NCBI GenBank assembly: GCA_026004395.1
Contig: BPJB01000001.1
Span: forward strand, 161,370-225,369
Direction: 5' to 3'
Source: Patescibacteria group bacterium
Lineage (GTDB): Bacteria; Patescibacteriota; Microgenomatia; Levybacterales; UBA12049
DNA length: 64,000 nucleotides
The notes under the pieces are model-generated. The model searched no databases, had not been told where the DNA came from, and saw only the letters and a list, made by a program, of their open reading frames with translations. Positions 4,183 to 50,088 of the stretch are shown here, one piece after another. Each line of letters opens with the position of its first letter. Position 1 is the stretch's first letter. Position numbers and translations under genes: made by a program.

Positions 4183-4209
4183 AGAAACGCAACAGTTTTG
4201 AGGATGAGA

Positions 4210-5756: not shown

Positions 5757-6186
5757 TTCTATTGATTACTTCTTTTACTTTTGCTCCTATTTCTGCTGCT
5801 TGTCTATCTTTATGATAGCGATATGGATCACCTTTGGTAGTTGCGATTATAGCAGGTTTGAGAGATGTTACAAGGCTGTCATAATCTTCATCTGTGAGAA
5901 TTCCCTCAAGCAAAACGACAAAATCAACGTAGGGAAGTTTTGCAAGCTTTTGTGCACGTAGAGATTGTTGCTCCACTGGTCTATTCTTGCCTTTTTGGAT
6001 CTTGATGGCAATATCGCTTTCAAGCATGACGATGAGTATATCTCCTTCTTCCTTTGCTTTTTTCAGAAAAGATTTATGCCCTTCATGAAGCAGATCAAAA
6101 CAGCCCCCTGCCAAGACAAGAATTTTTCCTTCTTTAATTAGTTTTTGAGTTATAAATTTAGCCTTGTTTGCTGTTGTAATTTTCAT
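5713..6186 (-). CDS. Cytidylyltransferase-like nucleotidyltransferase (HxGH family; RfaE domain II / glycerol-3-phosphate cytidylyltransferase-like)
   Basis: LVLAGGCFDLLHEGHKSFL contains the (T/H)xGH nucleotidyltransferase signature. Size is about 157 aa. Confidence 0.6.
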   Translation of the reverse strand: MKITTANKAKFITQKLIKEGKILVLAGGCFDLLHEGHKSFLKKAKEEGDILIVMLESDIAIKIQKGKNRPVEQQSLRAQKLAKLPYVDFVVLLEGILTDEDYDSLVTSLKPAIIATTKGDPYRYHKDRQAAEIGAKVKEVINRIEEFSTTRCIKLYE

Positions 6187-6238
6187 ATCTAAGTTTTTAA
6201 AAATATTTTTTTTGATTAAATCAAGAATAAATTAAGAT

Positions 6239-7669: not shown

Positions 7670-7723
7670 TTTAAAGAATTGCTATGGCTTATTACAGGTA
7701 TTATACTATACATACTCCTTTAT

Positions 7724-24650: not shown

Positions 24651-25070
24651 TTATTGTTCCCTCTTGCTTGTAAATAATAACTCAAGTGTTAAAAAAAGTG
24701 CCAGTAGTAACAAAAAGAAAAAGGGGTGGGTCAGATTATTAGCGCGAAAAACAAAATATATCACAGTAAATATACTGAGCAATATTCCATGTTTTCTGCT
24801 CTTTAATAAAAATGCAAAAAAAGAAAAAATAAAAAGCGCCAGTAACATATAAAAGATAATCACCACAGGAATAGATGCGAATTTAATCGAAAAATTCTGA
24901 TAAGGAGAAAGAGTTGTAATTATAATAAGAAGAGCAATAAAAGAAAGTATACTTAATATTAAGAATTTCCATGTGCGCCTCTTTCTTCGCATAGAATAAG
25001 TGTAGCAAATTTTTTTTATTTTAATTAAAAGGTTAATTTTCTTTTTTAAAATATTGACAAAAAATAGCAC
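24651..25070 (-). CDS. Small membrane protein (3 TM), unknown function
   Basis: A hydrophobic 139-aa ORF with no recognisable motif. Confidence 0.3.
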   Translation of the reverse strand: MLFFVNILKKKINLLIKIKKICYTYSMRRKRRTWKFLILSILSFIALLIIITTLSPYQNFSIKFASIPVVIIFYMLLALFIFSFFAFLLKSRKHGILLSIFTVIYFVFRANNLTHPFFFLLLLALFLTLELLFTSKREQ

Positions 25071-25090
25071 TCCTGTTATTATAGTGCTAA
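25054..25090 (+). promoter_or_regulatory. hrcA-grpE-dnaK promoter (TTGACA, 17 nt, TATTAT) overlapped by a CIRCE operator
   Basis: TTGACA at 25054-25059, TATTAT at 25077-25082. CIRCE: TAGCACTC-ctgttatta-TAGTGCTAA at 25065-25090 (consensus TTAGCACTC-N9-GAGTGCTAA), sitting directly upstream of hrcA. Confidence 0.8.
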
Positions 25091-29508: not shown

Positions 29509-29802
29509 ATGTGTCCTCCAAATGAAACACTGACTGAGATTGGGTGCTTGCCAACCGATCCTATCCAATTTATAGGAAGATTTTATGGTATTGGTTTAAG
29601 TCTTATTGGAGGAGTATCTCTCATTTTTATAATCATCGGAGGTTATATTATCCTTACATCGCAAGGTAATCCAGACCAAATTAATGTAGGTAAAAGTTAT
29701 ATATTTTATGCTATCCTAGGGCTACTTCTTGCTATTTTTGGTTTTGTCTTTATTGAGGTGGTTATGGTTGATATTTTACAAATTCCAGGATTTAGTACTT
29801 AG
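29509..29802 (+). CDS. Small two-helix membrane protein, TrbC/VirB2-pilin-like topology (tentative)
   Basis: A 97-aa protein with two hydrophobic helices separated by a short polar loop (…LTSQGNPDQ…). Its stop lies 7 nt upstream of the giant polytopic membrane protein gene. Confidence 0.45.
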   Translation: MCPPNETLTEIGCLPTDPIQFIGRFYGIGLSLIGGVSLIFIIIGGYIILTSQGNPDQINVGKSYIFYAILGLLLAIFGFVFIEVVMVDILQIPGFST

Positions 29803-29809
29803 ATAAAAT

Positions 29810-32800
29810 ATGAAAAAGCTTCTGCCCAGTGTATTGATAATTGGTCTTCTGTATCTATTCTTCTTTTTTCCTTTTCATGTGTTTGCTCAGGACGCAGGAT
29901 TACAATCTCCTATGACTATTACTACTACGACAGATCTGCCGCAAGAGGGAGCATGGATTAAAGATCCTGAGGTTACAAAGGTAGGGAAAAATGCTGCAAG
30001 ATCGGGAATGCTTCTTGATTGGACTCTTCAGGAATATCATTGGGCATCAACGAGCGCTGAGTCAGTGAGACCGCTGGCTGAATTCTGGACTGTTATTCAA
30101 AGAATAGTTTATTCACTCTTTCTTTTTGTGATTATTGTAACGGCTTTAATATTAATTATTACACGAGGCAAAAGCATTTCCGCTCGTCGTTTTTTGCCTA
30201 GATTCTTTTTCGTAATTTTATTGGTTACTTTCTCGTTTTCATTGGTTAAATTTGTCTACCAAATTACAGATATTTTTCAAGGTTTTTTTCTTAAAAATCC
30301 ACAAGGTCAGATTATTTCCTCAAGAGATCTTCTTTATGTTGGTTTTGATTATAAAGACTTCGTAGGATTGAGAGTTTTTGGTCAACAATATGATGAGTCA
30401 GCGATGATAGCGCTTCTTTTAGTTAAACTTACAGCTTTTACTTATTATGTAATGTCTATATTGCTTATTGTACGCAAAATTATATTATGGTTTTTTATTG
30501 TTGTATCTCCAATTTTTCCTCTCCTTCTTCTTTTCTATCCATTGCGTAATACTGCCAAAATCTGGTTAGGAGAATTTTTTCGTTGGGTATTATATGCTCC
30601 TTTATTTGCTATTTTCCTTTCAGGTCTTGTTAAGATGTGGCAAAGTTCTCTGCCTCTACCTTTTAATTTTATAGGGGAGAATGTCCGTGATAATGTAATC
30701 TATCCAACTGCAATCAATATTCTTCTTGGAGGTCCTCAACGATTGGTTACTATTGATAATAGTGTTAATCTGCCTAACACTTTTGCACTCTATTTGGTTG
30801 CTCTTTTAATGTTGTGGGTGGTTATTATTCTACCTTTTATCTTGCTTCAGATATTTCTTGATTATATGTACACATTCACTTTTAAGGATTCACCAATTTT
30901 CAAACAAATGATGGGTTTTATTAATAATCGTTTTATTCCTCCATCACCTCCGCCTTTGTCTCCTACTGCTCCTGGACAGCCTTCGGGTCTTGCTCGCAAT
31001 CTCCCATTTGGAAAGCGTATCTCTCTACCTCAAGGAGCTGGTATTGCACGTTCAATTCCTACTGATGTAGCTACTTCACAAAAAGCAAATATTGCTAGAC
31101 CATTTGTTGCATCAAAAGTGGATCAGTCTAAAGTTCTGCGTATGGTCAATCTTTCAATCCCAACAATGCAAGATATCGCACGTTTTGAACGAGCTAGATT
31201 AGAGAAGGATACACTCCAGAAAAAAGAAATTGAAAGAACGCGACAGATTCTTAGAAATATTGCAAACCCAATGAGTATCACAACTGCGTCTGAGAGAGAA
31301 CGCTTCATGCATATCCGTGAGATGCTGCTTAAAGAAAGTCAAAGTGGAAATCCTGTTGCGCTAACAGTTCTTCAAGCAGCCACAAACTATTATATGTCAA
31401 ATGTCTCACAACAATTTTTATCTCAATCACAGGCAACAGAAGAGATTATTCAAAATATTGCGCATCCTGAGAAGATCACCAATACTCTGGAGAGAGAAAG
31501 AATTCTTCAGCTTAAAGAGCAGATTATCAAATCAAGTAAAGAAAATAATCCTCTAGCAACTACTCTTTTAAAAGTTATTTCCCAAATTGAAAATTCTACC
31601 AAACAGCAACTGCAGAAAACATTAGAGAAAATTTCGCAACCTCAATTGATACAATCAACAGATGAAAAAGAAAAATATCAAGAACTTCGTGAGCGTATTG
31701 TTGCAGCCAGTAGATCAGGAAATCAACTGGCAGTACTTCTTCTTAAGTCATTGGAGTCTAAGACTTCTCTTGATCAAGTACAAGCTCTGAAGGAACAGCT
31801 TATTAAAGCTCGCGATGCAGGTAATCCTTTAGCTTCAGAAATACTGAATATTGCATCATCCACAACAAAAGAGTTGTCCAATGAACAGATCACAACGATT
31901 GAATCTGAAATTAGAGAAGCACAAAAAAGAGGAGATCCACTTGCATATCTACTGATGATGATGCTCTCTCAAAAAACAAAGTCGAAGACCGAGTCTCCAA
32001 CCCCGGCTACTTTGAAACTTAAAAAAGGCACATTCCCGGTTGTCAATAGAATTCAACAAGTTAGTCTTGATGATTATGAAGCAGTAAAGAAACTCTGGAA
32101 AGACAATTATCAAAATCTGGATATTCCTCAAGAAGTTGAAGGATTCAGATCACGAAGAGAATGGATCTTAAATGATATTGATTCAATACAAAAAACAATC
32201 AATTTGCTTACTTCACAAAATCCTCAAGATATAGAAGAGGGAATGAAGAATGTTTCCGATATTTTACCATTCCTTCTAATAGGAGGATTTTCACAGACTG
32301 AAATCATAGCTTATCTTAAAGCAAAAATGGAGGCTGCAAAATCTGTACTTGAAGAGTTGGATAAAGAGACAACAGAAGATCTTGTTGAGTCCAGACCTTC
32401 TAAAACTTCTTCTCAACATCAACTGCATATGAGTGTTCAGGAGAGTATAGATAATACGTCTAATCAATATGAAAATGAGATTAACAATTCTATTACAAAT
32501 TTTTACAGTATCAATGCTTCGATTGCACAACAGAGCGATCTGTCAACAAAATCAGTTAATTTTCAATCTGCACAAAATGCAAATTCCTTATTAACGTTAG
32601 TCAATCTTCCTCTGCCTACCATGCAAGATATTGTTAAGTATGAGAAGGCACTTTCTTCTAAGGATACAACTTCTAAAAAAGAGGTAGAAAAGTTTCTTCA
32701 GACGTTAAAGAAACTTGCAGATCCAGAACATCTTACACAAGAAGAAAAAGAAAAGATACAAGCAGTAAAAGATACTCTAGAGAAGGAGAGTAAACAAGGC

Positions 32801-35236
32801 AATATACTTGCAGAGTCTATTCTTACGGCTACAAAACTGAGCCAAGAGCAATTTACAGAAAAAGATATTCCAATTCTTTTACAGCTGTTGCGAACGATCA
32901 CCGATCCATCAATGGCAGAAGATCCTTCAGAACAAGAAACCTACAGAAGGTTATATTCTCAGCTAAGTAATGCCAAACAACAGGCACAGCCTCTAGCTTT
33001 GGAAATCTTTCGTCTAATTGATACATTAGCTCAAAAAGAGTCAGAGTTGACAGCCGTGTTTCTCCAAAAACTCAGCGACCCTGATTCTCTAACAGATGCT
33101 AACGGAAGATTGACATTTCTCAAACTGAAGGAAAGATTACAAGAAGAAAGCAGTAAAGGTAATCAACTCGCATCATTTATCCTTCAGGAAGCTAAAAGAG
33201 ATACTAATCTGATTAACGCTAATAAAGTTAGACTTAAGATTATTGAATCAGCTTTAGATGGTGATCAGTTGGCAAATTTTATTCTCTCAACTCATATACA
33301 GCAGATACCTACTGCTCTTCAAAATCAGGCTCTAACCGTATATAAAATCCTTAGAGATGAAAAACAAAAAGGAAATACTCTAGCACAATCACTATTGAGA
33401 TTATTAGAGTCGAAAAAGCAAACCACCTCAACTAAGATTCATCCTTTATTACCTAAACAGAATCGTATTCAACAAGTAAGCCTTGAAGATTATGAAGCTG
33501 TGAAGAAACTCTGGAAAGAAAATTTCCTTTCAGATGAGATAACAGGTTATTCGGATAAAGAAAGAGCAGAATGGATAAAAAAAGAGATTGCCAATGTTTC
33601 AGAGACAATTAACCTTCTTTCATCTTCAAATCCAGAAGATATTGAGCAGGGAATGAGTCGAGTTGGAGAAATTCTTCCCTTCCTTCTTATTGGAGGATTT
33701 TCACAAGGTGAGATATTAGGATATTTGAAAGCAAAATTGGAAGCTGGTAAATCAGCACTGGAAGAAATTGAAAATAATCAAGATGAGGTAGTTAGAGTAG
33801 AGAGTAATCTTAAGAGCAAAAAAAACGAAAAGACGTTATCTTTTAGTAAAGACTTTGTCGGAGAAATGCAGCAGACTGCTGCTAAAAAAACTGATGACAA
33901 AAAATATAGAGATAAAGAGGAACTAGTTTCATCTCTAAATCTACAAGCTAATCTTCCTCAAACTGAGACTCTTCTTAAGACGCTCTCTCTTCCTTTTTAT
34001 AATCTGAAGGACATTCCCTCTCTTGATATACAGCAGAAAATCACTCCTTCAGCAGCATTTTTAGAACTTGGTGCTCTTTTAAAACTTGCTCATCCGGATA
34101 AGATTAAAGATGCAAAAGAGAAAGAAAAGTTTGCACAAATACGTTCTGCTTTGGTTTCGCAAGCTCGTGATGGAGATGAGTATGCATCATCTATTCTTGC
34201 TGTAGCAGATATCATTTCAGAAAAGGCAGATTCTGAAGATATAGCTCTTCTTACACTTAAAACATTGCAAAAAATTGTATTTCCCGATCTTTGTAAGATA
34301 GATGAACAACAAGAGATGCATTCTCTTAATCAGCAATTACAACAGGAGATACAAAAAGGAAATCTTCTTGCGAGTGAAGGAGAGAAGCTAGCAATAGCAT
34401 ATAAACAAGCACAGCTAGATCAACTTGCTAACTTGATAAGTGAGCTTTATAGTGCGCAAGCAGGATCAGAAGATTCCGAAGAAACACTTCGCGTGTTGAG
34501 AAAACAATTAGAGAATGCTCGTGCAATTGGAAATAACATTGCAGAAAAAATTATTGCATTTGGCGAGAAACAACCCAGTAAATATGAAATTGAAAAACTT
34601 CTAATTTCTTTGTATGAAATCAAAGAAACAGATCGTCTTATATCAACTCTATTCACTTCCTATCTTGCACCTTCGTCTGAATTGTTGTCGCTTGCTAGAG
34701 CTTACTATGAAAAACTGCAAAAACAGAAAAATAATCCATTTGCAGCTTTGTTGATTAGACTAATCAGAAAACAATTACAACAAAGAAAAAGAACGGTCGC
34801 TTCTCTTAGTTTGCCACAACAAAATAGATTGCAACAAGTAAGTCTTGAAGATTATGAGGCAGTAAAGAGGCTCTGGTATGAAATTTATCTTCGTGGAGAT
34901 ATTCCGCTTGATGATGAGGGAGAAACACAATCTCGCGAACAATGGATTGCATCGGATAAAGAAAAACTAATTAACACAGTAAATCTTCTCACATCTGATG
35001 ATCCAGTGAATAATAGAAGAGCTATGGAACAGATTATAGATATTTTGCCATTCCTTCTTATTGGGGGATTCTCCAAAGATGAAATGGTGGGTTATTTAAA
35101 AGCAAAGAGAGAAGCAGCTGAGATGGCTTTGTCGGTACTTAGTGATCAAAAAGAATCTATTTTTTTAAATTCACAAAAAGAAGCTAATTCTCAATCAATA
35201 GCAAAAAACCAAAACTTAAAGAAAGATACTTTCTGA
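29810..35236 (+). CDS. Giant (1808 aa) polytopic membrane protein: signal peptide, a 5-6 TM N-terminal domain (VirB6/TrbL-like topology, tentative), a P-rich linker, and about 1400 aa of alpha-helical repeats in three super-modules
   Basis: One uninterrupted 5.4 kb frame. N-terminal cleavable-type signal (MKKLLPSVLIIGLLYLFFFFPFHVFAQDAG), TM helices between aa 95-370, then a PPSPPPLSPTAPGQPSG linker. After that come repeated ~40-aa units (…ERERF.xIRExLLKESQSGNPVALTVL…) and three copies of a ~115-aa module (…QQVSLEDYEAVKKLWKEN……ILPFLLIGGFSQ.EI.GYLKAK.EA…). Confidence 0.7.
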   Translation: MKKLLPSVLIIGLLYLFFFFPFHVFAQDAGLQSPMTITTTTDLPQEGAWIKDPEVTKVGKNAARSGMLLDWTLQEYHWASTSAESVRPLAEFWTVIQRIVYSLFLFVIIVTALILIITRGKSISARRFLPRFFFVILLVTFSFSLVKFVYQITDIFQGFFLKNPQGQIISSRDLLYVGFDYKDFVGLRVFGQQYDESAMIALLLVKLTAFTYYVMSILLIVRKIILWFFIVVSPIFPLLLLFYPLRNTAKIWLGEFFRWVLYAPLFAIFLSGLVKMWQSSLPLPFNFIGENVRDNVIYPTAINILLGGPQRLVTIDNSVNLPNTFALYLVALLMLWVVIILPFILLQIFLDYMYTFTFKDSPIFKQMMGFINNRFIPPSPPPLSPTAPGQPSGLARNLPFGKRISLPQGAGIARSIPTDVATSQKANIARPFVASKVDQSKVLRMVNLSIPTMQDIARFERARLEKDTLQKKEIERTRQILRNIANPMSITTASERERFMHIREMLLKESQSGNPVALTVLQAATNYYMSNVSQQFLSQSQATEEIIQNIAHPEKITNTLERERILQLKEQIIKSSKENNPLATTLLKVISQIENSTKQQLQKTLEKISQPQLIQSTDEKEKYQELRERIVAASRSGNQLAVLLLKSLESKTSLDQVQALKEQLIKARDAGNPLASEILNIASSTTKELSNEQITTIESEIREAQKRGDPLAYLLMMMLSQKTKSKTESPTPATLKLKKGTFPVVNRIQQVSLDDYEAVKKLWKDNYQNLDIPQEVEGFRSRREWILNDIDSIQKTINLLTSQNPQDIEEGMKNVSDILPFLLIGGFSQTEIIAYLKAKMEAAKSVLEELDKETTEDLVESRPSKTSSQHQLHMSVQESIDNTSNQYENEINNSITNFYSINASIAQQSDLSTKSVNFQSAQNANSLLTLVNLPLPTMQDIVKYEKALSSKDTTSKKEVEKFLQTLKKLADPEHLTQEEKEKIQAVKDTLEKESKQGNILAESILTATKLSQEQFTEKDIPILLQLLRTITDPSMAEDPSEQETYRRLYSQLSNAKQQAQPLALEIFRLIDTLAQKESELTAVFLQKLSDPDSLTDANGRLTFLKLKERLQEESSKGNQLASFILQEAKRDTNLINANKVRLKIIESALDGDQLANFILSTHIQQIPTALQNQALTVYKILRDEKQKGNTLAQSLLRLLESKKQTTSTKIHPLLPKQNRIQQVSLEDYEAVKKLWKENFLSDEITGYSDKERAEWIKKEIANVSETINLLSSSNPEDIEQGMSRVGEILPFLLIGGFSQGEILGYLKAKLEAGKSALEEIENNQDEVVRVESNLKSKKNEKTLSFSKDFVGEMQQTAAKKTDDKKYRDKEELVSSLNLQANLPQTETLLKTLSLPFYNLKDIPSLDIQQKITPSAAFLELGALLKLAHPDKIKDAKEKEKFAQIRSALVSQARDGDEYASSILAVADIISEKADSEDIALLTLKTLQKIVFPDLCKIDEQQEMHSLNQQLQQEIQKGNLLASEGEKLAIAYKQAQLDQLANLISELYSAQAGSEDSEETLRVLRKQLENARAIGNNIAEKIIAFGEKQPSKYEIEKLLISLYEIKETDRLISTLFTSYLAPSSELLSLARAYYEKLQKQKNNPFAALLIRLIRKQLQQRKRTVASLSLPQQNRLQQVSLEDYEAVKRLWYEIYLRGDIPLDDEGETQSREQWIASDKEKLINTVNLLTSDDPVNNRRAMEQIIDILPFLLIGGFSKDEMVGYLKAKREAAEMALSVLSDQKESIFLNSQKEANSQSIAKNQNLKKDTF
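32054..32360 (+). repeat. Intragenic repeat copy 1 (conserved ~300 bp core of a ~1.4 kb super-repeat)
   Basis: caacaagttagtcttgatgattatgaagcagtaaagaaactctggaaagac… through …attttaccattccttctaataggaggattttcacag… This recurs at 33470 and 34832 with about 80% identity. Confidence 0.7.
33470..33770 (+). repeat. Intragenic repeat copy 2
   Basis: caacaagtaagccttgaagattatgaagctgtgaagaaactctggaaagaaaat… through …attcttcccttccttcttattggaggattttcacaagg…. Confidence 0.7.
34832..35140 (+). repeat. Intragenic repeat copy 3
   Basis: caacaagtaagtcttgaagattatgaggcagtaaagaggctctggtatgaaatt… through …attttgccattccttcttattgggggattctccaaag…. Confidence 0.7.
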
Positions 35237-35290: not shown

Positions 35291-37966
35291 ATGCTAGGTA
35301 ATTTATTCACCCAACGAAAACCAGTGAAACCTTCCATCGCAAGTGATGAGCAAGCAGGAATTGCTCAGTCAAGCGTCTCCGAACAGCAAATATCTTCTTC
35401 AGGCACTACAGCTGCAGTTGGTTCGCGTATGGATCCTCTCATGCGCCAAAATCTTTCTGCTTTATCTCATCTTGATGCTCGAACAACACAGGTGCTTCAT
35501 CATGCACAGGATGAAACCAAACGAATTCGTCAGGCACAAATACGACCGGAACAACTTCTTCTTGGACTCCTCTATGATGAAGAAATATTTAAACTTCTTG
35601 AACAGTTTGAAGTGGATGTTGCCAAGCTTTCGCAAGAAATTCAATCAAAAGAACAGATTGGTACTTATCTAGGTCAACCCACACTCAGTAATGAGAGTAT
35701 TCAAATTTTTGAGCAAGCGTATCGTGAAACAAAGAAAAGAGGAGAAAGTTTCGTTTCTCCTGAGGATCTACTTATGGTTATCTGCGATAGTAACTATGAG
35801 GCTAGCCTTGTTCTTAAAGAAAAAGGTATCAAAAGAGAACAGATAGAAGAAAGGGTGGCAAAATCTTCAATATTTATTAAAGGCAGGAAATCGATTCTGC
35901 AGCAGTACGGAATTGATCTAACAGAGGAAGCACGGGAAGGGAAATTGGATCCTATTGCAGGCAGAGATAAAGAAATAGATAGACTTATACATATTTTACT
36001 TAGACGAACGAAAAATAATCCCATTATTATTGGCGAAGCAGGCGTGGGTAAGACAGCTTTGGTTGAAGGATTGGCTCAGAAGATAGTCTCTGGAAACGCT
36101 CCGAAAGAACTTCAAAATAAACGTATATTTCAGTTAGATCTTGCATCGCTTATTGCGGGAGCAAGTCATCGGGGAGAGTTTGAAGAGAGATTGAAGGGAG
36201 TTATTAATGAGACAATTGCTGCAGAAGGACAGATAATTCTTTTTATTGATGAAATTCATACCCTCATTGGTACTGGAGATACTGAAGGTGCACTTGATGC
36301 ATCCAATATAATTAAGCCACATTTGGCTAGAGGTCACATACAAGTTATTGGTACTACTACTACCTCTGAATACCGTAAACACTTTGAGAAGGATAAAGCA
36401 TTTGAAAGAAGATTCCAACCTGTTCTTTGCGAGGAACCAGATGAGTCTACAGCAGTTCAGATGTTGAAAGTGCTGCAACCAAAATATGAGAAATTTCACA
36501 CAGTTGTCTTCCCAGAAGATACACTCATTGCAGCAGTTAAGCTTTCTAAAAAATATATAGGTGATCGCTACTTGCCGGACAAAGCAGTTGATCTTCTTGA
36601 TGAAGCAGCAGCTCATGTCAAGCTTGAAATTGAGGGTGGCAAAAGATCAGGAAATACAGTTGAGAAAAAAGATATAGAACAAGTTGTGAGTAACTGGACA
36701 GGGATTCCTGTTACTCGATTGACTGAAGATGAAAGTCAAAAACTTCTCAATCTTGAGAAAAAGATTCATGAGCGACTTATAGATCAAGAAGAAGCAGTAA
36801 TTGCTGTGGCTGAGGCTGTTCGTCGAGGGAGGATAGGTCTTTCTGCGGCAAATCGTCCTATTGCTTCATTTATTTTTCTTGGTCCAACAGGAGTTGGCAA
36901 GACGGAATTGGCAAAGACATTAGCTGAGATTCTTTTTGGTCGAGACGATGCAATGGTCAGGCTAGACATGAGTGAATATATGGAAAAACATGAGGTAGCA
37001 AAACTTATCGGTGCTCCGCCTGGTTATGTGGGTTATGAAGAAGGAGGGCAGCTCACAGAGGCTGTACGGCAAAAGCCTTACTCAATTGTTCTCTTAGATG
37101 AGGTAGAGAAAGCCCATCCAGATGTTTTTAATATTCTTCTTCAGCTTTTGGAAGATGGAAGACTTACAGATAATAAAGGCAATACAATTTCATTTAAAAA
37201 TACTATTGTCATTTGCACTTCCAATATTGGCAGTAGTCTCATTCAACAGCAACTAAGTGAGAAAGAAGATTCAATGCAACAATCTCAAGAGGAGTTTAAT
37301 AAACAGTTTGAAGAATTAGCAAGTATGGTAAGTAATGAACTTCATAAATTCTTCCGTCCTGAACTTTTGAATAGATTTGATGATATCGTTATATTTAAAC
37401 CATTGCGTAAATCAGATATGAACGCAATTGCCAAGCTTGGAATAGCAAAAACAGCTAAGCTCCTTGAAGATCAAGGATATCACTTACAAACCACAGAGAA
37501 AGCTATTGCCGAGCTTGCTAAGGAAGGTTATGACCCAGTTTATGGGGCTCGTCCATTGAGACGTCTAATCCAAACAGCCATAGAGAACCAAATAGCACTT
37601 CTTATCATTGGCAGAACGTTTGTCCCAGGCGATACGATCATTGTTGATTTTGATGAGACACAGGGAGTATTTAGATTTAGTAAAGGGAGCGGTGAGAGAT
37701 TAGAGAACAGAGATAATCTGTCAGAGTCTTCTGAAAGTCTAAAGGAAAATGCTCAAGTTGAAGATACTTTTTCTGCCGAAACTTCAATCAATCAACCGGA
37801 TGCAGTGAGTCTTAATAATCAATCGGAAGACTCATCATCATCAATCTTAGCACACGATCCCCTCTCTGATATTAATGGATCATTATTAAGAAATAATCAG
37901 ACAGATATTCAGGGGCAGCCTCCATTATCTCAAGGAAGTGGAGATAATCTTACCACTACAAATTAG
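35291..37966 (+). CDS. Hsp100/Clp-family AAA+ ATPase with two intact nucleotide-binding domains and two Clp_N repeats, ClpA/ClpC-like, no long M-domain, no recognisable ClpP-binding (I/L)G(F/L) loop, S/Q-rich N- and C-terminal tails
   Basis: D1 has …IIIGEAGVGKTALVEGLA… (Walker A) and …ILFIDEIHTL… (Walker B). D2 has …FIFLGPTGVGKTELAK… and …SIVLLDEVEKAH…. Only about 35 aa lie between D1 and D2. The IG[FL]-loop position reads …NIGSSLIQQQ…. The C-terminal 120 aa are low complexity. Confidence 0.8.
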   Translation: MLGNLFTQRKPVKPSIASDEQAGIAQSSVSEQQISSSGTTAAVGSRMDPLMRQNLSALSHLDARTTQVLHHAQDETKRIRQAQIRPEQLLLGLLYDEEIFKLLEQFEVDVAKLSQEIQSKEQIGTYLGQPTLSNESIQIFEQAYRETKKRGESFVSPEDLLMVICDSNYEASLVLKEKGIKREQIEERVAKSSIFIKGRKSILQQYGIDLTEEAREGKLDPIAGRDKEIDRLIHILLRRTKNNPIIIGEAGVGKTALVEGLAQKIVSGNAPKELQNKRIFQLDLASLIAGASHRGEFEERLKGVINETIAAEGQIILFIDEIHTLIGTGDTEGALDASNIIKPHLARGHIQVIGTTTTSEYRKHFEKDKAFERRFQPVLCEEPDESTAVQMLKVLQPKYEKFHTVVFPEDTLIAAVKLSKKYIGDRYLPDKAVDLLDEAAAHVKLEIEGGKRSGNTVEKKDIEQVVSNWTGIPVTRLTEDESQKLLNLEKKIHERLIDQEEAVIAVAEAVRRGRIGLSAANRPIASFIFLGPTGVGKTELAKTLAEILFGRDDAMVRLDMSEYMEKHEVAKLIGAPPGYVGYEEGGQLTEAVRQKPYSIVLLDEVEKAHPDVFNILLQLLEDGRLTDNKGNTISFKNTIVICTSNIGSSLIQQQLSEKEDSMQQSQEEFNKQFEELASMVSNELHKFFRPELLNRFDDIVIFKPLRKSDMNAIAKLGIAKTAKLLEDQGYHLQTTEKAIAELAKEGYDPVYGARPLRRLIQTAIENQIALLIIGRTFVPGDTIIVDFDETQGVFRFSKGSGERLENRDNLSESSESLKENAQVEDTFSAETSINQPDAVSLNNQSEDSSSSILAHDPLSDINGSLLRNNQTDIQGQPPLSQGSGDNLTTTN

Positions 37967-38137: not shown

Positions 38138-38467
38138 ATGTTTTCGTACCTCAGATTTCCATATTATTTTGTTCGATTTTGGTTCATTGAAGCTCCATCC
38201 GGTATTTTGGATTTTTTTCTTTCTCTCAATCATGCATTTTTTCATTTTTTCTCTCTTCCATTATTTTTGCGTACATTTTTTCAACCTTTGAAAAATGAAT
38301 ACCGCACGGGTTTAGTAGGATTTTCTATAGGAATGGGTATTGCGGTTAAAACGGTGTTAATTTTGGTTGATATTTTACTTTTTATTATTCTTCTTGTTTT
38401 TGAAGCCGCAGTTTTAGTTGCATTTGTTATATTTCCTTTTTTAACAATAGCATTACTTTTATGGTAG
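38138..38467 (+). CDS. Small multi-pass membrane protein (3-4 TM)
   Basis: A strongly hydrophobic 109-aa ORF whose stop overlaps the start of the downstream Hsp100 paralog by 7 nt (ATGGTAG). Confidence 0.4.
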   Translation: MFSYLRFPYYFVRFWFIEAPSGILDFFLSLNHAFFHFFSLPLFLRTFFQPLKNEYRTGLVGFSIGMGIAVKTVLILVDILLFIILLVFEAAVLVAFVIFPFLTIALLLW

Positions 38468-40878
38468 CAGCGCAGGACGATTTTATAAAACTCTATGCAT
38501 TTTATAGATCTGCATTTATGCGTGCAGTTCGTCTCTTGATTTTTTTCATTCTTGGCACATATATTCTTTCTGCTTTTTCTACTAATACTTCTCCCAAATT
38601 TGCACTCTTTTTAATGAACATTTTTATCATGTTAGAGGTTTTTTATCATTTTAAGATATCCCGTTTACGACCATCTATGACAGTTCAACAAGCGGATGAT
38701 GATCATGCTCTTAAGGCATGTACTCTTGCTGTTCTCTATGCACTTTATACTGCACAATCTGCGGAGGAGTTAATCAGGCGACTTTTACGCTCAAAACAAG
38801 CAATCTTTTTACTAGAACGTATTCCTGTTAGTCCTGAAGAACTTCCTCATACTACAATTGAAGCTATTACACTCCTTAGATCTACTTTAAAGATTGCCAA
38901 GCTAGCAGGAGGAATCTATATTACTCCTGCTGATGTGATAGCAACATATCTTTTGTTGACTGAGGATCAATCAAAACTGCTCTTTTCCAAAAAAATCAAA
39001 CAAACTGAGCTGATAGAAATTTTGAGATGGGCAAGGTGGAGCTACCCCGAGGAGGAAAAGCACCATCCGCTGGAAATTCAAATTAGTGGTTCAGGAATTG
39101 GTGAAGGGCTTGTAGCAGGATGGACAATCGAGACAAAGAAGTACACTCGTGATTTTGGTATGAACGCAGTTAATGAAAATAACTCCATTATTGGAAGAGA
39201 GGAAGAGTTTCGTGCATTACAGGAAGCTCTCGTAAAAAATCAAAATAACAATGTTCTTCTTATAGGCGAGCAAGGTGCTGGAAAAGAAGGATTGGTACAG
39301 AAACTAGCTATTGATAGTTTTAATGGAAGAACAATTGCAGGTTTGAGGAATAAACGTATTCTTGAACTTCTTATTGGTCCATTAATTGCTGGTGTCTCAT
39401 CTTTAGGAGATCTAGAAGCGCGTCTTCAGGCAATTATTGAAGAAGTATCTCATGCTGGGAATATCATTCTTTATATACCTGAAGTGCAGGATATTCTCGG
39501 ATCGACATCTTTCTCTATGGATCTTTCTGGAGCTCTTTATCCTTATCTTAAAACTGGCAAACTTCCTGTCATTGCGTCTATCACTCCAGGTAATTTTAAG
39601 ACCTATCTTGAGGAAAAACCTCTTGCACGGCTTTTTACACCTATTTATCTTAATGAACCAAAAGAGGAACAAGCAAAACGTATATTGATGGAAAGATCAT
39701 TAGCAATTGAGCGAAAAACCAAAGTCATCATTACTTATTCAGCAATTATTGCTGCTGTAAAATTTGGTGATCGTTATGTACAGGAGATTAGACTGCCGGG
39801 TAGCGCAATTCGACTTCTTGAAGATGTTGTGCAAAGTGCAATGCAGCAGACAATGCCTGTATATTCTCTTACGCACCAAAAAATTCTTACAGAAGATTTC
39901 ATTGTTCAGAAGATTGAAGAGAGGATTGGTGTGTCTCTTTCTGAACCCACATCAGATGAAAGAAATCTTTTATTAAACTTAGAGAATAAACTTCATGAGC
40001 GGGTCATAGGTCAAGACGAGGCAATAAGAGTCATTGCGCAAGCTATTCGTAGACTTCGTTCTGGGATGATATCACGACCAAGACCCATATCATTTCTTTT
40101 CTTAGGACCAACTGGAGTGGGAAAAACAGAGACAGCAAAAGCGCTTGCCAGTATTTATTTTGGTGGTGAAAATTCTATGATTAGACTGGATATGAGTGAG
40201 TATTCCGATGAGATAGGAGAACGCAGGCTGCTTGGAGCTCCTCCAGGACAAGGAACAGAGCGTGGTGAGTTAACAGAACAAGTTCGAGATCATCCTTATT
40301 CTTTGATATTGTTGGATGAGTTTGAAAAAGCTCATCCTCGAATTTTGGATCTTTTTCTTCAAGTTTTGGATGATGGTCGTCTCACAGATAACAAAGGTAG
40401 AACAGTATCTTTTATAAATTCGCTGATTATTGCAACATCTAACGCAGGTTCTGAGTTTATTCGCGAAGAGGTCTTGAAAGGAACTCCATTAGATCAACAG
40501 TTTGAAGCAAAGCTTATTGAGTATTTACAAAATCATCATATTTTCAAACCTGAACTTCTCAATAGATTTGACGATATCATCACTTTTAGACCGCTTACCA
40601 AAGAGCAGATCAAAAAAATTTGTGCACTTATGCTTCAGCAGGTAGTGTCTGATTTGTTAGAAAAAGATATAGCTATAGTATGGGAAGATAAAGTTTTAGA
40701 TAAAATATCTTCAGAAGCATTTGATCCTCAGTTTGGAGCTCGTCCTATAAGAAGATATATTCAAAACAATATAGAAGATCTTCTTGCTCAAAAAATACTT
40801 GCAGGAGATGTGCAACGAGGGAATACTGTGCATATCACACTCAGAGACGATGATTCATTTGCAGTAACTGTTACCTAG
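38461..40878 (+). CDS. Membrane-anchored Hsp100/Clp-like AAA+ protein with degenerate D1 (pseudo-ATPase) and intact D2
   Basis: Two N-terminal TM helices (…LLIFFILGTYILSAF…, …FALFLMNIFIMLEVFY…). The D1 Walker A reads GEQGAGKEG (GKE instead of GKT/S) and the D1 Walker B reads ILYIPE (Pro in place of Asp). D2 is canonical: …LFLGPTGVGKTETAK…, …SLILLDEFEKAH…, a sensor-2 GAR in …GARPIRR…. No IGF loop. Confidence 0.65.
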   Translation: MVAAQDDFIKLYAFYRSAFMRAVRLLIFFILGTYILSAFSTNTSPKFALFLMNIFIMLEVFYHFKISRLRPSMTVQQADDDHALKACTLAVLYALYTAQSAEELIRRLLRSKQAIFLLERIPVSPEELPHTTIEAITLLRSTLKIAKLAGGIYITPADVIATYLLLTEDQSKLLFSKKIKQTELIEILRWARWSYPEEEKHHPLEIQISGSGIGEGLVAGWTIETKKYTRDFGMNAVNENNSIIGREEEFRALQEALVKNQNNNVLLIGEQGAGKEGLVQKLAIDSFNGRTIAGLRNKRILELLIGPLIAGVSSLGDLEARLQAIIEEVSHAGNIILYIPEVQDILGSTSFSMDLSGALYPYLKTGKLPVIASITPGNFKTYLEEKPLARLFTPIYLNEPKEEQAKRILMERSLAIERKTKVIITYSAIIAAVKFGDRYVQEIRLPGSAIRLLEDVVQSAMQQTMPVYSLTHQKILTEDFIVQKIEERIGVSLSEPTSDERNLLLNLENKLHERVIGQDEAIRVIAQAIRRLRSGMISRPRPISFLFLGPTGVGKTETAKALASIYFGGENSMIRLDMSEYSDEIGERRLLGAPPGQGTERGELTEQVRDHPYSLILLDEFEKAHPRILDLFLQVLDDGRLTDNKGRTVSFINSLIIATSNAGSEFIREEVLKGTPLDQQFEAKLIEYLQNHHIFKPELLNRFDDIITFRPLTKEQIKKICALMLQQVVSDLLEKDIAIVWEDKVLDKISSEAFDPQFGARPIRRYIQNNIEDLLAQKILAGDVQRGNTVHITLRDDDSFAVTVT

Positions 40879-40926: not shown

Positions 40927-41949
40927 ATGACTCAAAGACGCACGATCACAAAAAGGAAAAAATTAATAAGAAGGAGGAAACATCCATGGATGAAAATCCT
41001 ATCCTTTTTTCAAGGAGAGGGAGGAATCTTTGTCATTTTCATATTAGCATCTATAATGGCCGGAGCATTTGCGCTCACAGGTGGACTTACTCCAGTGCTT
41101 AATCCAGCTCCATCGTCTCAGGATCAAGTTATTATTGATGAGGACTCAGCAAAACGCAGTAATGAGAAATCTCTTCAACTAGTTGATATTAAGATTAAAC
41201 CAACAGATACTCCAACACCAACACCCTCGAGTACACCGACCCTAACACCCACACCGCAACAAGCGTGTTTGAATAAGACAGTTTTGACACTCATACTTGA
41301 TGTATCTACTTCAATGAATGCGAATAACAAGATGGGGCAGCTTAATGATGCCTTAAAAAATCTTATAAGTCAGTTAAACGATGAGACGGTGATAGGTGCT
41401 ATAGAATTTGCAGGCCTTGCTTCTTTTCCTAATACTAATGGTGCAAATACACTTCTTCCCTATACTCGGTATAAAGATAATAAATCTCTTATTCAGTCTC
41501 GATTAAGTAACTTACAAGTACATACAACTTCGCTCAACGATGGAACTTATTTTCGATCTGCCTTTACTAGAGCTATTAATAACATCAATGCTGTCAAGGG
41601 TATGTATGCAAGTCAAGGATATAATTTTGTAACAATTGTTTTTACTGATGGAGTACCAGAGACACAGTACACAGATCATGATTGTTTAGTTGAGATTAAC
41701 AATCCCTATATTTGTTTTTCCAATAAGCAAGATCCGCGTTATGATTTAACAGATAGACTCAAAAGTATATCTAATCGAGTGTATTCAATAGGTATTTATT
41801 CAGGACAAAGAGAAAGAGCTGTTTTAACACAAGCCAAACAATTACTTGCAGATATTGCATCAAAACCTTCGTACACAAAAAGTAGCGATAACCCTGCTGC
41901 AATAACTTCTCTTTTCCAAGATACTCTTTCTACTGTTTGTAATCAATAG
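40927..41949 (+). CDS. TM-anchored von Willebrand factor type A (vWA) domain protein with a T/P-rich linker
   Basis: N-terminal TM (…IFVIFILASIMAGAFALTGGL…), a linker TDTPTPTPSSTPTLTPTP, and a vWA core with the MIDAS motif …LILDVSTSMNAN… (DxSxS) plus …VTIVFTDGVPE… (the T…DG metal-site residues). Confidence 0.7.
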   Translation: MTQRRTITKRKKLIRRRKHPWMKILSFFQGEGGIFVIFILASIMAGAFALTGGLTPVLNPAPSSQDQVIIDEDSAKRSNEKSLQLVDIKIKPTDTPTPTPSSTPTLTPTPQQACLNKTVLTLILDVSTSMNANNKMGQLNDALKNLISQLNDETVIGAIEFAGLASFPNTNGANTLLPYTRYKDNKSLIQSRLSNLQVHTTSLNDGTYFRSAFTRAINNINAVKGMYASQGYNFVTIVFTDGVPETQYTDHDCLVEINNPYICFSNKQDPRYDLTDRLKSISNRVYSIGIYSGQRERAVLTQAKQLLADIASKPSYTKSSDNPAAITSLFQDTLSTVCNQ

Positions 41950-43891: not shown

Positions 43892-45343
43892 ATGACACAG
43901 AAAAGCATAAACACACCATATTTTCCTCCAGTTGTTGCCGTTTTAGGTCATGTTGATCACGGGAAAACTACTCTTCTTGATGCTATAAGAAAAACATCTA
44001 TTGCAGAGCGTGAATTAGGTGGAATTACTCAGAGAATTGGAGCCTCATCAGTTGAAATTATAAGTGATGGTACAAAAAGGAAAATAACATTTATAGATAC
44101 TCCTGGTCATGAGGCTTTTGCAAAAATGAGAAGCCGTGGTGCACAAGTTGCGGATATTGGTCTTCTTGTTGTATCAGCGGCCGATGGGGTTATGCCACAA
44201 ACTCGAGAGAGTATCGCTGTTCTTAAAGATGCAGGAATACCCTATATTGTAGTCCTCACAAAATCTGATCTTCCCACAGCAAATCCTCAGAAAGTAAAAC
44301 AACAACTTCTAGGAGAAAATGTTCTTCTTGAAGAGTTTGGTGGTGATATTCCTGCAATCAGTGTATCAGCAAAGACCAATTATAATATTAAAGAACTGCT
44401 TGATCTTGTTCTTTTGGTTTATGAGCTTCACTATCCAAATTTGCAAGATGCCGCATCAGCGCCCCTTACTGCAGTGGTTATTGAGTCTCGCCTTGATACA
44501 AAAGCAGGACCAAAAGCAACAGTGGTTATAAAGAAGGGAACAATAAAACTTCGAGATGAGCTTTATACAGAACATGGACTATTTCGAGTAAGAAGTATCC
44601 TCACAGATAGAGGAGAATTACTTCAGGAAGCGTCTGTTGGAGATGCGGTCGAGATACTTGGATTTACGAGTGTTCCCAGCGTGGGAAGTCTTATCACCAA
44701 AACTCCTCAGTCTCTTGTTGAGGTATCTCCCAAAGTTCCTCTTAAAAAAGAAGCTACCCTACCAATGCAAAAGAGAGAAGGAGAACTCCAGATTATTCTG
44801 GTTGCTGATACTCAGGGATCACTCGAAGCAATTACAAATGCATTACCAGAAAAAGTCAGATTAGTTTACCAAAAAACAGGTGAAATTACAGAAGCAGATG
44901 TCCTTATGGCAAAATCAACAGGAGCGTTAATTATCGGTTTTAATACCCGCATTCGTCATGATGTTGCGAAACTAGCACGTACAGAAAAGGTTCTCATGAA
45001 AAATTATTCAATTATTTATGAGTTGCTGGATGAGATTTCAGAAGTACTCGCTGGTAAAGAACTTGAGATGATGGAACAGATTTTTGGGACCGCACAAATA
45101 CTTGCCAAGTTTCCCTATGAAAAGACATATGCTTTAGGAATTCGTGTATTAGACGGTAGGGTAGCCAAAGGTGATAAGGCAAGGTTGGTAAGAGGAGAAG
45201 AAATTATTGGAGAAACTCAAATCACTTCTTTAAGGGTAGGAAAGAATCCAGTATCTAAAGTAGAGAAGGGTCATGAAGCAGGGATCCTTATCTCACCATT
45301 ACTTGACTTCCAGGTTGGTGATGTGGTAATATGCCATGAATAA
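43892..45343 (+). CDS. infB: Translation initiation factor IF-2 (short form: G-domain through C-terminus)
   Basis: …VVAVLGHVDHGKTTLLDAIRKT… is G1, …FIDTPGHEAF… is G3, and …LTKSD… is the NKxD-like motif. The gene follows nusA. Confidence 0.88.
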   Translation: MTQKSINTPYFPPVVAVLGHVDHGKTTLLDAIRKTSIAERELGGITQRIGASSVEIISDGTKRKITFIDTPGHEAFAKMRSRGAQVADIGLLVVSAADGVMPQTRESIAVLKDAGIPYIVVLTKSDLPTANPQKVKQQLLGENVLLEEFGGDIPAISVSAKTNYNIKELLDLVLLVYELHYPNLQDAASAPLTAVVIESRLDTKAGPKATVVIKKGTIKLRDELYTEHGLFRVRSILTDRGELLQEASVGDAVEILGFTSVPSVGSLITKTPQSLVEVSPKVPLKKEATLPMQKREGELQIILVADTQGSLEAITNALPEKVRLVYQKTGEITEADVLMAKSTGALIIGFNTRIRHDVAKLARTEKVLMKNYSIIYELLDEISEVLAGKELEMMEQIFGTAQILAKFPYEKTYALGIRVLDGRVAKGDKARLVRGEEIIGETQITSLRVGKNPVSKVEKGHEAGILISPLLDFQVGDVVICHE

Positions 45344-48923: not shown

Positions 48924-48975
48924 CATACGATCTCTTTTGCTTTTGTGATATTTTTAGTATTATAAAGATCGTATG
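48924..48975 (+). promoter_or_regulatory. 10-bp perfect inverted repeat (CATACGATCT … AGATCGTATG, 32-nt loop) whose 3' arm contains the start codon of the Lon-like gene
   Basis: Left arm 48924-48933, right arm 48966-48975. The ATG of the downstream ORF is at 48973-48975, and the repeat sits in the pnp to Lon-like intergenic region. Confidence 0.4.
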
Positions 48976-50088
48976 GATCCTGCCTCTTTATCAACAGCAT
49001 CTTCACAGAAACCTATTCAAGAAAAAGCAGAGTCAATGGATCAGATTCGCAGATTAGGTGAGCGTGTTGAAAAGGCTAATCTCCCTGCTTTACTTAAAGA
49101 AAATCTTCTAGAACGTGTCTCACGTTTGGCTCTGATACGAGCAAGTTCGGGATTTATGAGTGCAAATTATATTCTCGAATATGAAAATACAGCTAACTAC
49201 ATTAATTGGGTGGTTGGATTGCCGTGGAATAATCAAAGTGAAGATATCCTAGATATGATAAAAGCAAAGCAGATTATGGATAAACATCATTATGGACTTG
49301 AAGAAATAAAAAATAGAATTTTGGATTATCTTGCTACTATAATTCTTAACTTAAAGCAAGGAAGAAAAGATATTATCCAGCGTGCGCCTATTCTTTGTCT
49401 CGTAGGCTTAGCAGGCACCGGTAAGACGACTCTCGCAGCATCAATAGCAGAGGCATTAAATAAAAAATTTGAACGTATTCCTTTTGGGGGGATGGCAGAC
49501 GCACGAGCTCTTCGTGGTCAATCCAAAGCTTTTCCAGATGCAGAGCCGGGGTATATTATCAAAAAACTTTTTCATGCACAAACAAAGAATCCAGTAATAC
49601 TTCTTGATGAGCTTGATAGAGTTACAGAATCGGCTCGAGCAGATATTATGGGAGTACTTGTAGAACTTCTTGATCCTGAGCAAAATTTCTCTTTTGTTGA
49701 TCACTATATTGACTATCCTTTTGATCTCTCGAATGTTTTTTTTATTGCAACCGCAAACAATACCAGTACTATTTCTACTGCTGTTCTTGATCGTTTGGAG
49801 ATTATTCAAATGCCTTCATATACAGATGAGGAAAAATTAATCATTGCTAAAAATTACCTTTTTGACAAAATAAGAACAACAGCAGGATTAACAGATCAAC
49901 AACTCAGCATTGATGAATCTGTTTGGCCTCAGGTGATAAGACCTTTGGGATTTGATTCTGGGATTCGTTCTCTTGAGAGAACAATTGAAAGTATATGCAG
50001 AAAAGTAGCGCGTCAAATTGTTGAAGGTAGAGTACAGAATGTTCGAATTACACAAGATAATCTCAAAGAGTATCTTGTTACGTGGTAG
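48973..50088 (+). CDS. Lon-derived AAA+ ATPase module without the N-terminal (LAN) domain and without the S16 protease domain
   Basis: …YINWVVGLPWNNQSED…KQIMDKHHYGLEEIKNRILDYLAT…ILCLVGLAGTGKTTLAASIAEALNKKFERIPFGGMADARALRGQSKAFPDAEPGYIIKKL…NPVILLDELDRV… is collinear with Lon residues about 300-580 (Walker A, Walker B, sensor/arginine finger). The ORF ends at …LKEYLVTW*, right where the Lon protease domain would begin, and the next gene (rnj) starts 86 nt later. Confidence 0.7.
   Translation: MDPASLSTASSQKPIQEKAESMDQIRRLGERVEKANLPALLKENLLERVSRLALIRASSGFMSANYILEYENTANYINWVVGLPWNNQSEDILDMIKAKQIMDKHHYGLEEIKNRILDYLATIILNLKQGRKDIIQRAPILCLVGLAGTGKTTLAASIAEALNKKFERIPFGGMADARALRGQSKAFPDAEPGYIIKKLFHAQTKNPVILLDELDRVTESARADIMGVLVELLDPEQNFSFVDHYIDYPFDLSNVFFIATANNTSTISTAVLDRLEIIQMPSYTDEEKLIIAKNYLFDKIRTTAGLTDQQLSIDESVWPQVIRPLGFDSGIRSLERTIESICRKVARQIVEGRVQNVRITQDNLKEYLVTW

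Follow-up and report, generated by a model that had tools for sequence, protein, structure and literature searches.

We describe a two-gene module on the forward strand of a 64,000-nucleotide stretch of contig BPJB01000001.1 (hereafter, the window) from a Patescibacteria group bacterium of the Levybacterales. It consists of a small open reading frame (ORF) encoding an integral-membrane protein of 109 amino acids (aa; 38138..38467) and, overlapping its end, an ORF of 805 aa (38461..40878) that ORF calling, Pfam and NCBIfam models, phmmer and AlphaFold2 (AF2) identified as a class-1 Clp/Hsp100 paralogue anchored by transmembrane (TM) helices, which we termed TM-Clp. We are very confident that TM-Clp is a conserved and selected membrane-anchored Clp paralogue with a dead first ATPase ring (D1), tyrosine-free pore loops and an obligate small partner. 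The two ORFs form a conserved module of Levybacteria, and more distant versions of it occur in other members of the candidate phyla radiation (CPR)/Patescibacteria. With moderate confidence, we read TM-Clp as a membrane-embedded AAA+ remodeller that is driven by its second ring (D2), does not thread its substrates, uses D1 as a structural ring and probably serves membrane proteostasis.

Domain order and the two ATPase rings of TM-Clp

From the N-terminus, TM-Clp comprises a cytoplasmic helix, two TM helices (TM1 and TM2), a diverged Clp_N domain, a linker, D1 and D2. Pfam matched the protein with AAA_2 (3e-46), ClpB_D2-small (1e-24) and AAA_lid_9, and D1 gave only weak generic P-loop matches. 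The NCBIfam models for ClpB, ClpA, ClpK, ClpG and ClpV all matched it far under their cut-offs, with scores of 496 against a cut-off of 1232 for TIGR03346 (ClpB) and of 426 against 993 for TIGR02639 (ClpA). The best PDB sequence matches were ClpB of T. thermophilus (1qvr, 6e-126 in phmmer), with both rings covered, and ClpC (3j3s). The AF2 model of the protein (pLDDT 88.2, pTM 0.78) had subunits of the ClpC and ClpB hexamers as its top Foldseek matches, with a TM-score of up to 0.85 on the target. Tandem AAA+ modules, with a D2 of the AAA_2 type followed by a C-terminal D2-small domain, thus give TM-Clp the two-ring architecture of class 1; D1 lacks the functional Walker, sensor and arginine-finger residues that are expected in both rings of this class.

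Three features of better known relatives were absent. In the phmmer alignment to 1qvr, the segment 473-476 stands opposite ClpB 402-521, so that ~119 residues corresponding to the M domain are gone. Sequence inspection and alignment found no ClpP-docking [ILV]GF tripeptide between SNAGSEFIREEV and FKPELLNRFDD (LKGTPLDQQFEAKLIEYLQNHHI), and Pfam found no peptidase domain in the 805 aa, which, together with the presence of two AAA modules, separates the protein from FtsH. By fold and domain order, TM-Clp is a member of the Clp/Hsp100 superfamily that falls outside ClpB, ClpA/ClpC and FtsH by the features that define them. Its identity to the canonical Clp encoded nearby in the window is 45% in D2 and 34% in D1, and ClpB of unrelated bacteria is about equally distant. 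Because of this equal distance, the large subunit is, judged by sequence comparison, an old paralogue of ClpB/ClpC. In public databases the family carries the generic name 'ATP-dependent Clp protease ATP-binding subunit', which is probably misleading because its members lack the ClpP-docking loop. The original prediction, which had been made from the DNA sequence of the window, was not aware of any described Hsp100 subfamily with such features; we likewise found no specific model in Pfam or NCBIfam and no published description in the literature searched.

About 105 clusters of homologues, ~780-860 aa in length and sharing the N-terminal hydrophobic anchor and the D1 changes, were retrieved in a database search. 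Those with a named source came from Levybacteria, Roizmanbacteria and 'Patescibacteria', and one more distant form came from Magasanikbacteria. Motif counts given below were taken from an alignment of 105 sequences and refer to the 93 rows that carry Pro in place of the Walker B Asp of D1.

The D1 module (residues 241-475, 39181..39885) is predicted to be catalytically dead yet conserved, as judged from its motif columns, identity and ratio of nonsynonymous to synonymous substitution rates (dN/dS). Its Walker A motif reads GEQGAGKEG (residues 269-277, 39265..39291), with Gly and Lys kept and Glu in the place of Thr/Ser, exactly as originally reported. Its Walker B motif reads ILYIPEVQD (residues 336-344, 39466..39492), with Pro in the place of Asp. 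The Walker B Asp coordinates Mg, and the catalytic base is the Glu directly after it. Hence the substitution by Pro stands, but the earlier description of the lost Asp as catalytic does not: the residue that was lost is a Mg ligand, and the catalytic Glu is retained. Because the phmmer alignment to ClpB 1qvr pairs GEQGAGKEG with GEPGVGKTA and ILYIPEVQ with ILFIDELH, the register of the motifs is confirmed, and an offset assignment was rejected.

D1 keeps its P-loop (GxxGxGK) and IGR motif. Across the family, G269, G272 and G274 are invariant, and position 275 holds K in 87 rows and R in the other 6. The position of the Walker A Thr is occupied by E in 65 rows, by T in 18 and by S in 4, and the Walker B Glu stays E or D in 79 of the 93 rows. 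The sensor-1 Thr is mostly M, I or V. Both Arg fingers are replaced, their columns holding E/Q/D and V/L/A; in the window protein, the former finger site, located from phmmer and the family columns, reads KPLARLFTPIY (39616..39648) in comparison to the canonical ALERRFQPV. The pore loop (39388..39426) reads AGVSSLGDLEARL, and the canonical sequence would be AGAKYRGEFEERL; Tyr is lost, and no row (0/93) is aromatic at this pore-1 position, where canonical proteins have KYR. The family-wide loss of Arg fingers, sensor-1 and pore-loop Tyr extends the original view of D1 as a pseudo-ATPase ring.

The large subdomain of D1 has a mean pairwise identity of 52%, in comparison to 34% for the N-domain, 39% for the D1 lid and 44% for D2-small. 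Calculated against a 93%-identical relative (L075), dN/dS was 0.16 over the whole gene; D1 alone gave 0.076 and the small ORF 0.10. Because its motif states are conserved, its identity is high and its dN/dS is low, D1 is strongly constrained; its residues mark it as dead as an enzyme at the same time. One may speculate that the change of Thr to Glu, found alongside the universal change of Asp to Pro, represents a relocated acidic Mg ligand.

D2, together with D2-small (residues 476-805, 39886..40875), carries the full set of ATPase motifs according to Pfam and the alignment, namely Walker A GPTGVGKTE (residues 549-557, 40105..40131), Walker B LILLDEFEKA (residues 615-624, 40303..40332) and the sensor-2 GAR (residues 759-761, 40735..40743). 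K555, D619, E620, N661, R761 and the Arg finger R702 are kept in 93/93 rows, and at T556 the rows have T (88) or S (5). The pore loop (40234..40278) reads GAPPGQGTERGELTE, where the canonical sequence is GAPPGYVGYEEGGQLTE: GYVGY is replaced by GQ--GT in the window protein and by G[EQ]-G family-wide, the loop is 2 residues shorter, and an aromatic residue is found in 0/93 rows. The earlier statement that D2 is fully canonical is therefore correct for the ATPase motifs but not for the pore loop.

The membrane anchor is formed by TM1 (residues 18-41, 38512..38583), assigned from hydropathy and an AF2 helix with pLDDT >90, and TM2 (residues 46-66, 38596..38658), the sole anchor helix that is retained in the natural fusions described below. 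Hydrophobic segments at residues 22-40 and 48-66, with Kyte-Doolittle values of 1.92 and 1.61, coincide with these AF2 helices, and at least one hydrophobic segment is present in 92 of the 93 rows and two in 69. Both the two N-terminal TM helices and the membrane anchoring that had been predicted are thus borne out. The helical N-domain (residues 71-200, 38671..39060) is not matched by the Pfam Clp_N model itself, and hhalign of the family N-domain with that of the canonical Clp gave a probability of 96.8% (E 2e-10), which places it in Clp_N; AF2 drew a helical bundle at residues 80-194. The linker that follows contains a family-specific motif, GWTIETKKYTRDF (39118..39156), which is among the best-conserved stretches of the consensus and invariant in the five closest sequences; this linker, with its conserved GWTxETKKY, is a low-confidence region in AF2. 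When the N-terminal 235 aa were used as the query, only 85 representative clusters among 1.84 billion matched. In the full-length proteins among them (~780-830 aa) the match was always at the N-terminus, and the rest were shorter fragments. From this we conclude that the anchor and N-domain are specific to the TM-Clp family.

A small membrane protein as the constant partner

The small protein, recognised from its ORF, its homologues and its hydrophobicity, carries the motif LRTFFxPxKNEYRxGLVGFS and matched no family in Pfam or NCBIfam, in Pfam even at E values of up to 10. It has at least 536 clusters of homologues, and among the best 120 of these almost all are 105-119 aa long and four are 131-135 aa long. 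Its ORF ends with TGG TAG within the ATGGTAG (38461..38467) that opens the large ORF. The 7-nt overlap with the upstream mini-protein that the original prediction had described is therefore present, with the TM-Clp start inside the last small-ORF codons, a geometry typical of translational coupling.

To survey the pairing, we scanned one genome per GTDB species, resulting in 64 loci, 60 of which had enough upstream sequence to be assessed. The scan used a 5-sequence alignment and its two patterns, including [TAY]GWTxETKK; an alignment of 15 N-terminal plus D1 sequences was too divergent. Because these patterns limit the matches to Levybacteria-type members, the scan under-samples taxonomic breadth. 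Almost all of the 64 loci are labelled Levybacteria/Levyibacteriota or Patescibacteria. Many of the metagenome-assembled genomes with a Levybacteria-type locus (e.g. L008, L011 and L012) are titled 'uncultured Gammaproteobacteria bacterium', and a few are assigned to Saccharimonadales, Limnocylindrales or Sulfotelmatobacter; because of gene content and synteny, we regard these labels as placeholders or mistakes.

The small ORF lay immediately upstream of TM-Clp in 53 of the 60 loci, was fused to it in frame in the other 7 and was absent from none, which makes it a constant partner and bears out the originally proposed coupling to the mini-protein. Gaps between the two ORFs in relatives were mostly between -8 and +10 nt, with a 4-nt overlap in 17 loci. 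The fusions (L048, L053, L056, L058, L062, L067 and L069) are of at least two junction types. Fused fragments (P0355 and P0356) were independently found in other data; a search of a large protein database for full-length fused proteins gave fragments only. In the reverse direction, both small proteins that were looked up (2/2) had the ATPase as a neighbour. The window protein has all five features of the family, that is, the TM anchor, the 'IP[ED]' Walker B of D1, the GWTxETKKY linker, pore loops without Tyr and an upstream membrane ORF of ~110 aa. Distant relatives with 30-40% identity have an ORF of 118-127 aa directly upstream, which the hidden Markov model of the Levybacteria small protein matched in L007 (4e-29), L073 (8e-10), L006 (4e-9) and L074 (8e-4) and did not match in L072. 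In L001, a Levybacteria relative, the small ORF (7619-7996) had been missed by the gene caller, which called a spurious minus-strand ORF instead.

The fusions drop the first helix and TM1 of the ATPase, and the small protein joins the equivalent of TM2. By this geometry, the small protein has its C-terminus outside the cytoplasm and packs against the side of the ATPase, an arrangement that is topologically consistent with a location of both in the same membrane. In the AF2 model of the 436-aa fused fragment P0355 (pLDDT 90), a helix at residues 2-33 is followed by the KNEYR loop, a helix at 56-104 and then the anchor helix. A single record of 220 aa (P0361) has a third junction, in which small-protein residues 1-68 (through GLVGFSIALGMF) run directly into the N-terminal TM region of a TM-Clp; it may have arisen by a deletion or as a chimera during assembly.

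Genomic setting, working model and alternatives

In the window, the module is preceded by an inverted repeat of the CIRCE type, hrcA, grpE, dnaK and dnaJ and then by a pilin-like ORF, a VirB6-like gene and the canonical Clp gene, and it is followed by a vWA gene, a TrpR-like gene, nusA and infB. The CIRCE-like repeat ATAGCACTC-N9-TAGTGCTAA has 2 mismatches and lies at 25064-25090, 10 nt upstream of hrcA. Flanks were counted in loci with at least 4.5 kb of flanking sequence, 44 upstream and 43 downstream. The canonical Clp gene was found upstream of the pair in 22/44 loci and the VirB6-like gene in 15/44; in 15/44, the pair directly followed dnaJ/dnaK with no Clp between, and in 7 loci neither the canonical Clp nor dnaJ was nearby. 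Downstream, nusA was present in 39/43 loci and the vWA gene in 2/43. Because of these counts, we regard the pair as a stable unit and the canonical Clp/VirB6-like block as an optional insertion between dnaJ and the pair. The housekeeping block from the dnaK operon to nusA-infB hosts the pair in nearly all loci, for which reason we did not favour an origin from a defence island or a mobile element. A scan for promoters and terminators around the genes gave counts equal to those of shuffled sequences.

Our preferred reading, the D2-driven remodeller, starts from the anchor: the TM hairpin would hold the Clp_N domain and the face of D1 at the cytoplasmic surface of the membrane, and because the anchor puts these parts there, the machine would act on the small subunit or on clients in the membrane. 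Because D1 has lost the Walker A Thr, the Walker B Asp, sensor-1, the Arg fingers and the pore Tyr while the P-loop Gly and Lys are kept, it would be a structural ring for assembly or docking that at most binds nucleotide. D2, which keeps every ATPase residue, would be the sole motor. As the aromatic-hydrophobic pair is missing from the D2 pore loop as well, polypeptides would probably not be threaded processively as in ClpB, ClpC and ClpA; ATP cycles in D2 may instead drive conformational changes that the N-domain and the TM helices pass on to the small subunit or to the clients that it holds. The position of the pair behind the dnaK operon suggests a role in membrane proteostasis. In this reading we infer that the protein forms hexamers, that D1 binds nucleotide, that substrates are not threaded and that the role lies in proteostasis, whereas the domain architecture, the states of the motifs, the sequence conservation with purifying selection, the obligate partner with its natural fusions and the synteny are observed.

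In textbooks, Clp/Hsp100 machines exemplify the threading of substrates by pore-loop tyrosines, and to our knowledge all described bacterial members are soluble. TM-Clp shares with ClpB, ClpC and ClpA the two-tier AAA+ structure, a Clp_N-type domain, D1 with AAA_lid_9, an AAA_2-type D2 with identical catalytic motifs and ClpB_D2-small. In contrast to them, it has a TM hairpin, the D1 losses, pore-1 loops without Tyr and an obligate small membrane partner, and it has neither the M domain of ClpB and ClpC nor the IGF/VGF loop of ClpA and ClpC. One ring of the type II AAA+ proteins NSF (D2) and p97 (D1) serves hexamer assembly rather than work. This precedent, although it comes from a different clade, fits a ring such as the D1 of TM-Clp, which has lost its catalytic residues but kept the Gly and Lys of the P-loop and which may bind nucleotide.

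The D1 rings of Pex1/Pex6 are 'ATPase-dead' and without traditional aromatic pore loops (PMC9265785). Together with Pex15/PEX26, Pex1/Pex6 share with TM-Clp a double ring, a dead D1 without aromatic loops, an active D2 and membrane work through a small anchored partner. However, they belong to the classical AAA clade and form a soluble eukaryotic heterohexamer with threading D2 loops, whereas TM-Clp has its own TM hairpin and a non-aromatic D2 loop, so that the likeness is an analogy and not a membership. Aromatic pore loops are conserved in Clp/Hsp100 and critical for processive unfolding, and the Clp-related, membrane-associated Torsins, which lack them, depend on transmembrane cofactors (PMC5425593). 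Torsin with LAP1/LULL1 shares with TM-Clp its Clp/Hsp100 relationship, its place at the membrane, the missing aromatic pore loops and a membrane cofactor. Torsins differ in having a single AAA+ module, an Arg finger supplied by the AAA-like domain of the cofactor and a location in the ER lumen. TM-Clp has two modules and its own D2 Arg finger (R702, 93/93 rows), and because the 109-aa partner consists almost entirely of membrane helices, it could not supply an AAA-like domain. FtsH and Msp1/ATAD1 also have an N-terminal TM anchor that puts the ring entrance at the membrane, in FtsH in a proteostasis context, but they consist of one AAA ring whose pore loops are aromatic, and FtsH carries an M41 protease domain in addition; TM-Clp shares neither of these features. 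Because aromatic loops are critical and Torsins without them use TM cofactors, a non-threading, cofactor-coupled remodeller is more likely than a classical unfoldase. A more specific form of this idea, which we put forward tentatively as a possibility, is a hitherto unrecognised, CPR-specific, ATP-driven membrane machine, formed by the small protein and TM-Clp together, that would be a non-threading remodeller of the Clp clade and a bacterial counterpart to the logic of Torsin and its cofactors or of Pex1/6-Pex15. Its targets, which it would gate, assemble or reset, would be proteins of the membrane or cell surface in these ultra-small, episymbiotic bacteria with reduced genomes, and the relocated acidic residue of D1 (GKE, with Pro in Walker B) would permit Mg-independent or altered nucleotide binding.

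Several points weigh against the preferred reading. Loss of Tyr is not proof against threading, as a polar loop might be enough to hold a substrate that is dedicated to this machine. The heat-shock link consists of gene order in small, highly syntenic genomes and is absent in distant relatives, of which L006 and L073 have the pair flanked by UDG and MFS genes and L072 has it in a dcw cluster. There is no CIRCE directly upstream of the pair, the hrcA site being the sole copy in the window. Finally, residues 56-104 of the fused form, a single helix of 49 residues in the AF2 model, may cross the membrane once or, folded as a hairpin, twice. In L072, which is from Magasanikbacteria (4643-7787, P0095), a 928-aa relative and an upstream ORF of 118 aa lie between mraZ-rsmH-(small ORFs) and a Glycos_transf_4 gene, which we take to be mraY.

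Among the alternatives, the main one, a genuine threading motor, would make TM-Clp a membrane-protein extractase or disaggregase, similar to an FtsH without protease or to Msp1, with the small protein as substrate adaptor or membrane gate. Clients would leave the bilayer by being drawn first through the channel of D1 and then through that of D2. The hairpin N-terminal to the N-domain, which turns the D1 entry towards the membrane as in FtsH and Msp1, the intact D2 motor and the chaperone neighbourhood would all suit such a motor, and Pex1/Pex6 show that threading can go together with a D1 ring that is dead and non-aromatic (PMC9265785). The active D2 of Pex1/Pex6, however, keeps its pore loops, whereas the D2 loop of TM-Clp is non-aromatic in every row and two residues shorter, in a superfamily whose unfolding activity critically depends on aromatic loops (PMC5425593), and neither a ClpP-docking loop nor a protease domain is available for the disposal of clients. 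On this evidence we consider threading rather unlikely. We judge clearly improbable the role proposed in the original prediction, that of a membrane-docked regulatory or pseudo-enzyme partner of the upstream canonical Clp (35291-37966). Such a partner would form mixed rings with the canonical Clp or recruit it to the membrane. The two genes are adjacent in the window and in 22 of the 44 loci, both ATPases lack the M domain and the ClpP loop, and the D1 pore loop of the canonical paralogue is itself unusual (SHR). But this adjacency is facultative, with 15 loci following dnaJ directly and 7 having neither gene nearby, distant relatives carry the pair without a neighbouring Clp, and ClpB of other phyla is at least as close to the two paralogues as they are to one another. 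The invariant and sometimes fused partner is the small membrane protein.

An accessory ATPase that assembles or energises an adjoining surface apparatus resembling a type IV secretion system (T4SS) or a pilus (29509-29802, 29810-35236 and 40927-41949) is slightly less probable again. Most loci lack the VirB6-like/Clp block, only 2/43 have the vWA gene after the pair, the pair persists without them, and no context of VirB4/VirD4-type ATPases was seen; these observations outweigh the VirB6-like, pilin-like and vWA genes that flank the pair here and the VirB6-like gene upstream in 15/44 loci. An artefact or a decaying gene, be it a frameshift split or a pseudogenised copy of ClpB, is hardly credible, as nothing beyond the unusual motifs and overlapping ORFs speaks for it. 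Sequencing error or a frameshift, which the original prediction had kept as an alternative, was rejected because the split is the majority state (53/60 genomes), occurs in all three relative frames and leaves both ORFs under purifying selection. Decay was rejected because the same substitutions recur in ~100 clusters from independent assemblies and dN/dS is low (0.16, 0.076 and 0.10 for gene, D1 and small ORF).

Neighbouring genes and implications

The genes around the module have peculiarities of their own. The ORF at 29509-29802 encodes a 97-aa protein with two TM helices and is placed where the gene of a relative has a weak T4SS_pilin match. The next gene (29810-35236) encodes a protein of 1808 aa, whose N-terminal multi-TM domain resembles TrbL/VirB6 (Pfam E 1e-4, short of the cut-off) and which contains three long internal repeats, each ending in ...NR[IL]QQVSL[DE]DYEAVK[KR]LW...ILPFLLIGGFS. 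The canonical Clp has intact Walker motifs in both rings, no M domain, no IGF/VGF loop and a Ser/Gln/Asn-rich C-terminal tail of ~100 aa; its D1 pore loop is SHR, with His for Tyr, in 19/19 Levybacteria orthologues, and its D2 keeps GYVGY. It is thus neither a standard ClpB nor a standard ClpC. In L001, a gene for a 1039-aa Peptidase_S8 (subtilisin-like) protein and one for a secreted-looking protein of 289 aa (3411-7480) lie between the canonical Clp and the pair. Directly downstream of TM-Clp, a 340-aa protein (40927-41949) comprises an N-terminal TM helix, a Pro/Thr-rich linker and a vWA domain and is conserved in close relatives only. Further downstream, IF-2 (43892-45343) has just 483 aa, without the N-terminal regions of typical bacterial IF-2, and is 476-515 aa long in relatives, and a 371-aa protein (48973-50088) has AAA and Lon_lid domains without a Lon protease domain; in the relative L003, this gene comes after that for PNPase.

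The sequence-level facts on TM-Clp would surprise a specialist in AAA+ proteins; its function is what we infer from them. A lineage that keeps a membrane-anchored Hsp100 under strong purifying selection tests how far this scaffold can be repurposed. The module would offer a bacterial comparison system for Torsin and Pex1/Pex6, whose mechanisms are still debated, and it would add a lineage-specific component of proteostasis or of the envelope to the CPR bacteria.

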